DNA from: a virus
Strand: one strand, 5' to 3'
Virus genome (UHGV): UHGV-0335272
DNA length: 51,506 bases
The first letter of the stretch is position 1; each line of letters starts with the position of its first letter. Of this stretch, positions 47,688 to 48,050 are shown piece after piece. The position numbers and the translations under genes were made by a program. The notes beneath the pieces were generated by a model that was not told the DNA's origin, did not search any database, and was given only the letters and a program-made list of their open reading frames with translations.

Positions 47688-47703
47688 ACTGTATAAATAT
47701 ACA
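47688..47703. promoter_or_regulatory. LexA (SOS) box upstream of UmuD'-like gene
   Basis: CTGTATAAATATACAG matches CTGT-N8-ACAG; about 15 bp upstream of the gene. Confidence 0.55.
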
Positions 47704-47717
47704 GTTAATCATCAGGG

Positions 47718-48050
47718 GTGGTAATCATGGGTTTTCTATCACCAGCAGCAGACTACGCAGAACAGACGCTCACTATCACCAGCCTTTACGGCTTTGACGG
47801 CAACTGCCGAATCATCGAAACTTCAGCCGGTTACGCGGTCATAAACGTCGCCAGAAAGCCGGAAGTGGGTGATACCGTCCTGGTTTCGTTCTGCGGCAGT
47901 CTGGATTTCGCAAAAGTGCAGGGGAAAGCGCTGATAACTCAGGATGGAGAGGCTATTGAGGGTGATGCGCTGGATGATGCAACAGTCATGGGGGTAGTAA
48001 CTCATCTCCTGAACCGTGTGACAGATACCGACAATCGGCCTGTGATTTAA
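47718..48050 (+). CDS. UmuD'-like (S24 peptidase-fold) protein lacking N-terminal cleavable arm
   Basis: Starts near GFLSPAADYAEQ (UmuD GFPSPAADYVEQ follows the cleavage site); C-terminal VMGVVTHLL like UmuD VFGVVIHVV; SGDSM serine motif not conserved. Confidence 0.6.
   Translation: MVIMGFLSPAADYAEQTLTITSLYGFDGNCRIIETSAGYAVINVARKPEVGDTVLVSFCGSLDFAKVQGKALITQDGEAIEGDALDDATVMGVVTHLLNRVTDTDNRPVI

Follow-up and report, generated by a model that had tools for sequence, protein, structure and literature searches.

The UHGV virus genome UHGV-0335272, a stretch of 51,506 nucleotides (the window), carries at 47727–48050 on the plus strand a gene of PHROG 3469 for a UmuD′/HumD-like protein of 107 amino acids, composed of a UmuD′-type arm (residues 2–12), a degenerate S24 β-core and an acidic C-terminal tail. 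The gene lies directly downstream of a predicted LexA box, and looks like the first cistron of an apparent SOS induction module in a Gifsy-type prophage, a context that an earlier note on this DNA had missed. The reading favored here, held with moderate confidence and built on sequence comparisons, is that the protein serves as a HumD-like surrogate of UmuD′ that would act on host UmuC, and hence on DNA polymerase V (pol V), during the SOS response.

Arm, fold, and predicted LexA control of the UmuD′-like gene

The open reading frame (ORF) runs from the ATG at 47727 to the TAA at 48050. The earlier note had recognized this frame but had given its product 110 amino acids, the length that a start at the GTG at 47718 would yield. 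That GTG falls inside the Shine-Dalgarno sequence (AGGGGTGG, 47714–47721 on the plus strand, 5–12 nt before the ATG; relatives have a purine-rich equivalent), its frame is not conserved in the relatives, and every homologue starts with M-G-F; the true start is therefore taken to be the ATG and the product to be 107 amino acids long. Methionine before glycine would be removed, in keeping with the standard specificity of methionine aminopeptidase, and the N-terminus that results, GFLSPAADYAEQ (GFLSPAADY), is that of cleaved UmuD (GFPSPAADYVEQ), both following the motif GF[P/L]SPAADY. The cleavable pro-arm with its Cys/Ala-Gly site is absent; the ORF begins with Met-Gly at the position of UmuD Gly25. 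Across 41 diverged members of the family the most conserved positions are those of the N-terminal arm and a C-terminal Pro: arm residues G2, F3, S5, P6, and D9 are at least 90% conserved in this set, and P4, A7, and Y10 reach 90% only in a narrower set of 29 sequences. One relative of 141 amino acids from a search of 50% representatives (P0121) has a UmuD-type pro-arm (EFIRPAELREIIALTLFSDSMQC, followed by GF) fused to a short core that lacks the Ser, and is either a recombinant between umuD and the short family or an assembly chimera.

The protein matches the PHROG 3469 profile, "UmuD-like protein," with an E-value of 4.6e-46. Pfam recognizes no domain in the 107-residue protein, nor is there a precomputed Pfam domain in any of 99 homologues; the NCBIfam model PRK10276 gives 16 bits against a cut-off of 110. 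Because Pfam was empty and a single-sequence search of the PDB aligned only the N-terminal 40 residues, profile methods were needed to place the rest of the chain. Comparison by hhalign aligned residues 2–96 to residues 25–136 of E. coli UmuD (probability 96%, E 4.8e-9) and residues 1–107 to residues 1–129 of HumD of phage P1 (probability 96.7%, E 3.8e-10), the latter sharing the GV(V/I)TH..N strand and the ...D..PVI end. The alignment with UmuD from its post-cleavage N-terminus to its C-terminal strand, without the cleavable arm, which the earlier note had described, thus extends from end to end, and the comparison with HumD that it had recommended likewise gave a full-length profile match. 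The protein was found to fit the β fold of the LexA/CI/UmuD′ C-terminal domain, and in AlphaFold2 models its core reaches a pLDDT of 80–88, with both termini at low confidence. The family is compact, comprising 302 clusters at 50% identity with nearly all members about 100–110 amino acids long, and is found mainly in prophages of Enterobacter, Klebsiella, Escherichia, Cronobacter, Erwinia, and Pantoea.

Among known systems the locus appears to be a variant of the P1 humD design, with HumD (NF051876, PHROG 811; homologue N15 gp26) as its probable closest relative. Both genes are phage-borne, lack the pro-arm and share the M-GFPSPAADYVE type of start; both have a LexA box directly upstream (the sites being read from sequence) and no umuC partner; and both proteins have a C-terminal GV(V/I)TH(V/L)(I/L)N strand and an acidic ...D..PV(I/M) end. 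The annotation of the P1 record describes humD as LexA-regulated, with a site 20 nt upstream, as lacking umuC and as functionally complementing E. coli UmuD′. P1 HumD is also said, in papers that cite the 1999 work of McLenigan, to substitute for UmuD′ in UmuC-dependent mutagenesis. Bacterial UmuD′, the pol V accessory subunit of the Peptidase S24 family, has an identical arm motif, a similar C-terminal strand and LexA regulation; the phage protein differs from it in having no RecA*-dependent cleavage (RecA* being activated RecA), no Ser-Lys dyad, no umuC in its operon and an extra acidic C-terminal tail. A tblastn search with Enterobacter UmuC gave no match, either in the window or at any family locus out to 10 kb, which agrees with the earlier note's statement that no umuC-like gene follows.

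Upstream of the gene a σ70 promoter can be read at 47664–47692 on the plus strand (−35 TTGATC at 47664–47669, 17-nt spacer, −10 CACTGT at 47687–47692), although a strict consensus scan missed it. The predicted LexA (SOS) box, the 20-mer CACTGTATAAATATACAGTT at 47687–47706, overlaps the −10 element and the likely transcription start. Its core 16-mer CTGTATAAATATACAG at 47689–47704, 22 nt upstream of the ORF, is the perfect CTGT-N8-ACAG box that the earlier note had pointed out, and it is the only perfect one in the window; the 20-mer has 3 mismatches to the consensus TACTGTATATATATACAGTA, and no other CTG-N10-CAG site in the window has fewer than 9. By chance, 0.69 perfect CTGT-N8-ACAG boxes per window are expected, and 52 of 100 shuffles contained one or more. 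The 16-mer alone is not beyond chance, and its significance comes from conservation.

That conservation was assessed in 92 fetched loci encoding relatives of the UmuD′-like protein, 90 of which have enough upstream DNA. A perfect LexA box is present in 83 of the 90, in two fixed registers: relative to the start codon, 41 boxes lie at about −38, and 42 lie at about −275 with a conserved ORF for 79 amino acids between box and gene. Six of the seven others have a box with one mismatch at the same positions; the background of perfect boxes, true sites counted in, is about 0.03 per 400 nt. Diverged relatives keep TTGAT/CY as the −35 element exactly 17 nt before a (T/C)ACTGT −10 element, a spacing that would have the LexA operator always overlap the −10. 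Since the box is kept in so many relatives, predicted LexA control is a conserved trait of the gene family.

Proposed action on host UmuC

As proposed here, the locus would be a LexA-repressed transcription unit of a lambdoid prophage, with the UmuD′-like gene as its first cistron. When DNA damage inactivates LexA, the protein would be made at once, whereas host UmuD must first undergo slow RecA*-dependent processing; its conserved C-terminal strand would serve to form dimers, either homodimers or dimers with host UmuD/UmuD′, and its UmuD′ arm would be presented to host UmuC (pol V). The outcome would be early or otherwise retuned translesion synthesis on damaged phage and host DNA during prophage induction, and the antirepressor role in the prophage would most likely fall to orf72, a small ORF of the same SOS module. 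UmuC is the suggested target because it is the partner of the arm after cleavage, and the phage protein, though never cleaved, keeps that arm nearly invariant. In pol V as modeled with AlphaFold, the active site of UmuC has one UmuD′ arm inserted beside it; mutagenesis studies cited with the model, and consistent with it, found armless UmuD′ inactive and strong effects of changes at the N-terminal residue (PMC11791011).

Several observations weigh against this reading. In a multiple alignment of the family with UmuD homologues and HumD, UmuD Ser60 aligns to Tyr36 (Tyr, Phe, or Trp in the family) with a 12-residue deletion right behind it, and UmuD Lys97 aligns to a near-invariant Ala (Ala62); a second deletion, of about 6 residues, also lies in the family core. 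The careful alignment thus finds no intact Ser/Lys dyad, bearing out the earlier note's remark that the active-site serine motif is not conserved, and the protein, lacking the dyad of UmuD (S60/K97), is predicted to be catalytically dead. HumD, at 129 amino acids against 107, has neither the 12-residue deletion, which removes the Ser60 helix/hairpin, nor the second one; it and its family retain Ser/Thr plus Lys at the old active site, and its members are recognized by the Pfam S24 model (PF00717), which the 107-residue protein does not reach. The NCBIfam HumD model NF051876 likewise gives only 21.2 bits against a 120-bit cut-off, over residues 1–17. It is through deletion of the catalytic segment that the protein falls short of the HumD equivalog and Pfam S24 models. 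The earlier note had called the product a phage-supplied, already-active UmuD′ mimic; the identity stands, in that the HumD design is recovered, whereas "already active" is unproven, the Ser segment being deleted and the Lys lost, unlike in HumD. In the pol V model the C-terminus of UmuC sits on UmuD′ S36/T71/K73, which correspond to UmuD S60/T95/K97 (PMC11791011). With this cleft remodeled by Tyr36, Ala62, and the 12-residue deletion, productive pol V assembly by a homodimer is doubtful; the homodimer may fail to hold the UmuC tail, and the protein may act instead as a heterodimer with host UmuD/UmuD′ or as a decoy. A full surrogate of UmuD′, a partial one and a decoy are thus all conceivable. 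UmuD has nothing that corresponds to GKALITxDGEAIEGD, the internal block with the highest conservation, and the family may therefore have a partner of its own. A literature search found no paper on the PHROG 3469 family.

The apparent SOS module, its relatives, and its prophage setting

Gifsy prophages, which have short repressors, are induced by small antirepressors expressed from a LexA-controlled operon that lies downstream of the replication genes, after a terminator, and begins with a dinI homologue; DicA and RacR are listed among the homologues of the gfoR/gtgR repressors (Lemire 2011, PMC3121763). In Gifsy-2 the layout is a terminator, TACTGTGTTTATATACAGT, dinI, a hairpin with a T-run and the GTG-initiated gftA of 73 codons. 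The locus in the window resembles the dinI-antirepressor operons of Gifsy-1, -2, and -3 (gfoA/gftA/gfhA) in its place between the replication genes and the nin/Q region, in a terminator followed by a LexA box overlapping the promoter, in the order of an SOS-network gene and then an ORF of about 72 codons, and in a short repressor that appears non-cleavable. It differs from them in that the dinI slot is filled by the UmuD′-like gene and the gftA slot by orf72, which has no detectable homology to GftA, and in that the repressor is DicA-like only in its C-terminal part. The Rho-independent terminator, identified by a terminator scan at 47595–47621 on the plus strand (8-bp stem AAACCCGC/GCGGGTTT, then a T-run), probably insulates the module from upstream early-right transcription; equivalent terminators precede the LexA box in three related loci (L023, L025, and L028) and in Gifsy-2.

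The UmuD′-like gene is followed at 48087–48126 by a 17-bp inverted repeat (GGTTAGACAGAACAATT / AATTGCTCTGTCTAACC) with no U-tract, which is conserved in 13 of 14 window-like loci, L025 being the one that lacks it, and may be a site of protein binding or of processing. It was also considered as a structured RNA, an idea that was rejected: only one of its 14 pairs shows a compensatory change, and no Rfam family reached threshold. A GC-rich hairpin with a T-run at 48185–48209, possibly a leaky terminator or attenuator and comparable to the hairpin and T-run between dinI and gftA in Gifsy-2, stands just before orf72 and marks the left boundary of a swapped cassette. orf72 itself (PHROG 22673; 48222–48440, plus strand) encodes an immunity-linked product of 72 amino acids and is probably co-transcribed from the LexA promoter. 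Beyond it, at 48585–48881 on the plus strand, lies a homologue of the P1 Ref-like RecA-dependent HNH nuclease (Pfam PF16786, E 1.3e-11); such a gene occurs about 0.8 kb downstream in 14 related loci. P1 likewise encodes both Ref and HumD.

The cassette was delimited in 11 window-like loci with a visible immunity region. The segment 48190–48445 is swapped among them, whereas the UmuD′-like gene, the DNA up to 48190 and the Ref-like gene from 48445 on are conserved. orf72 is present in all seven loci whose repressor is of the class with a DicA-like C-terminal region, and an unrelated ORF of 55 codons (PHROG 34610) replaces it in all four loci with a repressor class of 163 amino acids. In one locus (L017) the UmuD′-like protein is 95% identical to that of the window, yet the repressor and the small ORF both differ. 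Of orf72 and the UmuD′-like gene, only the former tracks immunity and is thus the stronger candidate for the antirepressor; by its position and co-variation only, it is likely to have this role. A comparison of orf72 with GftA found no detectable homology (BLASTP E 7.8; hhalign probability 0.8%), their sole link being a weak shared match to PHROG 340 (E 1.7e-4 for orf72 and 0.23 for GftA), and tblastn of orf72 against phages gave no match.

As a self-contained unit under predicted LexA control, the UmuD′-like gene is found in at least four settings: within the nin region, which is the case of the window; directly upstream of terS in epsilon15-like phages; followed by dinI, an ORF of 96–101 codons and a gene for a protein that has only the LexA DNA-binding domain; and beside att/int in the arrangement dinI <- LexA box -> orfX-gene (mEp390, Flotzy). 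Its neighbors within 2 kb include dinI in 22 loci and recA in one, and further Ref-like nucleases in 14 and LexA proteins reduced to their N-terminal domain in six; the neighboring guild is one of SOS and RecA biology, not of immunity. The recA homologue is full-length (L034, 10497–11636; Pfam RecA, E 2.5e-135) and follows the gene immediately, downstream of the same promoter region with its LexA box. Proteins with only the LexA DNA-binding domain (PF01726) and no cleavable C-domain are encoded about 1 kb from the gene in L034, L037, L039, L040, L059, and L060, and by mEp390 as gp43 (L003, 4767–5087); in several loci they come after the UmuD′-like gene, dinI and the ORF of 96–101 codons, and they may be non-cleavable LexA mimics. 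In the arrangement designated type II, orfX (PHROG 3893; 79 amino acids) is inserted between the LexA box and the UmuD′-like gene (L001, 5762–6001, and 42 other loci); its stop overlaps the start of that gene (TGATG), and in most cases a divergent dinI homologue has the box in common with it.

The window as a whole comprises three blocks: a Mu-like transposable prophage region, host genes and, from 37180 on, a lambdoid prophage. The Mu-like early region (24464–32622) encodes a c-like repressor, a ner-like gene product, an rve transposase, an AAA+ MuB-like protein and Mor, and ends beside a pepT ORF (32820–33713). This ORF is without roughly the first 110 codons relative to full-length PepT, a truncation that suggests insertion of the transposable prophage into pepT. 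The host genes are this pepT fragment, roxA/ycfD (so named from its translation alone), phoQ and phoP, and the second, lambdoid prophage abuts phoP at 37110–37180. The lambdoid prophage carries in order an integrase, an excisionase, a repressor of 131 amino acids (42308–42703, minus strand), Cro-like and CII-like genes, replication genes, DUF1627/DUF977 genes, the UmuD′-like gene, a C5 methyltransferase, RusA and a Q-like gene. The repressor has a helix-turn-helix domain only, without an S24 domain, and a DicA-like C-terminal region; it appears to be a non-cleavable repressor of the Gifsy/DicA class, its likeness to DicA being limited to that C-terminal part, and it resembles none of the Gifsy repressors of the phage collection that was searched. 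The C5 cytosine DNA methyltransferase (48874–50361, 495 amino acids) lies in the nin region at a position where other relatives have RusA directly. A megablast search with the locus against phage and E. coli collections gave no match, so its DNA is not close to that of any deposited phage.

Alternative roles and significance

Of the other roles that can be proposed for the UmuD′-like protein, modulation of RecA* filaments is the likeliest, though still unlikely. The dead S24 core and acidic surfaces would dock in the groove of activated RecA and tune its co-protease or recombination activity, with the protein standing in for DinI. The gene does occupy the dinI position of the Gifsy LexA operon, is often paired with dinI, often with a RecA-dependent nuclease and once with recA, and encodes a strongly conserved acidic block, DGEAIEGDALDD; moreover, LexA, UmuD, CI, and DinI use the same RecA groove, and UmuD F26 and P29 touch RecA (PMC9926225). 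The UmuD residues that contact RecA, Y52, D91, E93, and F94 (PMC9926225), are however not conserved in the family, Y52 being replaced by an invariant Arg, D91 and E93 by non-acidic residues and F94 by a non-aromatic one (Ser58/Leu59 by register), which lowers this possibility. Relatives usually encode the gene together with DinI rather than in its stead, and where the arm was seen to contact RecA, it did so through a cleavage-site region still uncleaved and not as a free N-terminus. A dominant-negative decoy, which would sequester UmuC or form dead heterodimers with UmuD/UmuD′ and so block both pol V and the inhibition of recombination by UmuD′2C, is less probable again. Retention of the arm and C-terminal strand with loss of the Ser/Lys cleft that holds the UmuC C-terminus in the pol V model would suit such a decoy, as would co-encoding with DinI, an inhibitor of UmuD processing; but the nearest characterized relative, HumD, supports mutagenesis according to its annotation and reportedly also to citing papers, and a phage with damaged DNA of its own has no obvious benefit from blocking pol V. 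Decay of a humD or umuD gene to a non-functional remnant, to which the internal deletions and the catalytic residues lost relative to UmuD and HumD might point, is scarcely credible given the constant length of about 105–109 residues across the 302 clusters at 50% identity, the near-invariant terminal motifs, the strongly conserved internal block and a promoter and operator conserved in at least four genomic settings.

That the UmuD′-like protein might itself be a LexA-controlled antirepressor that inactivates the DicA-like repressor was the first idea, drawn from the Gifsy pattern and the short repressor. The locus does combine a LexA-boxed gene outside the immunity region with a repressor that appears non-cleavable: the prophage, as far as it is visible, has no other promoter with a LexA box, and its repressor is without S24; the gene lies downstream of the replication genes and after a terminator as in the Gifsy phages; and in window-like and Ic loci each of the 12 repressors identified nearby is a short helix-turn-helix protein. 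As the general role of the family the idea was rejected after BUCT554, mEp390, L086, and the cassette swap had been considered, and for the protein of the window it is now regarded as very improbable. Enterobacter phage BUCT554 has a full Rep/Ant system of the SPC32H type (Rep at 45% and Ant at 80% identity) with a LexA box at Ant, and its UmuD′-like gene, just before terS, has a second one; these two boxes are the only perfect ones in the genome. The SPC32H Rep/Ant genes of epsilon15-like phages are also small and LexA-controlled, but they have no sequence relationship to the UmuD′-like gene, and Ant adjoins the tailspike gene, whereas the UmuD′-like gene stands before terS with its own box. 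In mEp390 and L086 the gene occurs alongside CI repressors of the S24 type, which are presumably cleavable, and over the family it co-occurs with S24 CI, SPC32H-type Rep and three classes of short repressor, without co-variation with repressor class. The near-identical L017 copy goes with a different repressor class, and it is the adjacent small ORF that co-varies perfectly instead; nor has the protein any similarity to GftA, SPC32H Ant, or Tum-type proteins.

A further proposal concerns the C-terminal tail, which in the 107-residue protein is acidic and ends ...DTDNRPVI (48027–48047). An acidic run, then Pro, then one or two hydrophobic C-terminal residues are found in 89 of 106 full-length members, with DDDIPVM, DDEIPV, DDSPF, and DTDNRPVI as examples in the short family and an almost invariant EFDDCPV(M/I) in the HumD family (P0257–P0376); the C-terminal extension ending ...D..PVI is common to the family and HumD only, chromosomal UmuD having no such tail. 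The end of E. coli SSB was verified to be MDFDDDIPF, and its C-terminal tip shares with these tails the acidic run, the Pro, a C-terminal hydrophobic residue and a disordered setting; the phage tails differ in that the last residue is usually Val, Ile, or Met rather than Phe and in that the Pro is shifted by one in many. The likeness is a resemblance between sequences and may be coincidental. If it is more than that, the family and HumD might be two-peptide adaptors or decoys, in which a dead S24 dimer scaffold displays both the UmuD′ arm and an SSB-like acidic tail and, upon SOS induction, couples UmuC to, or competes for, the SSB-interaction network at stalled forks; this is a speculative idea, rated as improbable as the dominant-negative decoy, and, if true, would be a new phage route to taking over translesion synthesis or fork processing.

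The concept of a phage-borne UmuD′ is 25 years old, and the family is already labeled "UmuD-like" in PHROGs and RefSeq; what sets the present locus apart is its minimal core, its strict coupling to a predicted LexA box, a Gifsy-style module with an immunity-linked cassette and an SSB-like tail. As an Enterobacter example of the Gifsy-style SOS induction module, the locus also nominates, through its cassette swap, a new antirepressor family for DicA-like repressors, comprising orf72 (PHROG 22673) and its alternative of 55 amino acids (PHROG 34610). The truncated core of the UmuD′-like protein offers a natural minimal UmuD′ for asking which parts of the molecule—arm, cleft, dimer strand, or tail—activate UmuC. 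If the protein is HumD-like, temperate phages of Enterobacter, Klebsiella, E. coli, Cronobacter, and Erwinia would routinely carry a LexA-triggered shortcut that bypasses the RecA*-dependent timing checkpoint on pol V, with a bearing on damage-induced mutagenesis and Weigle-type reactivation in clinically relevant hosts.

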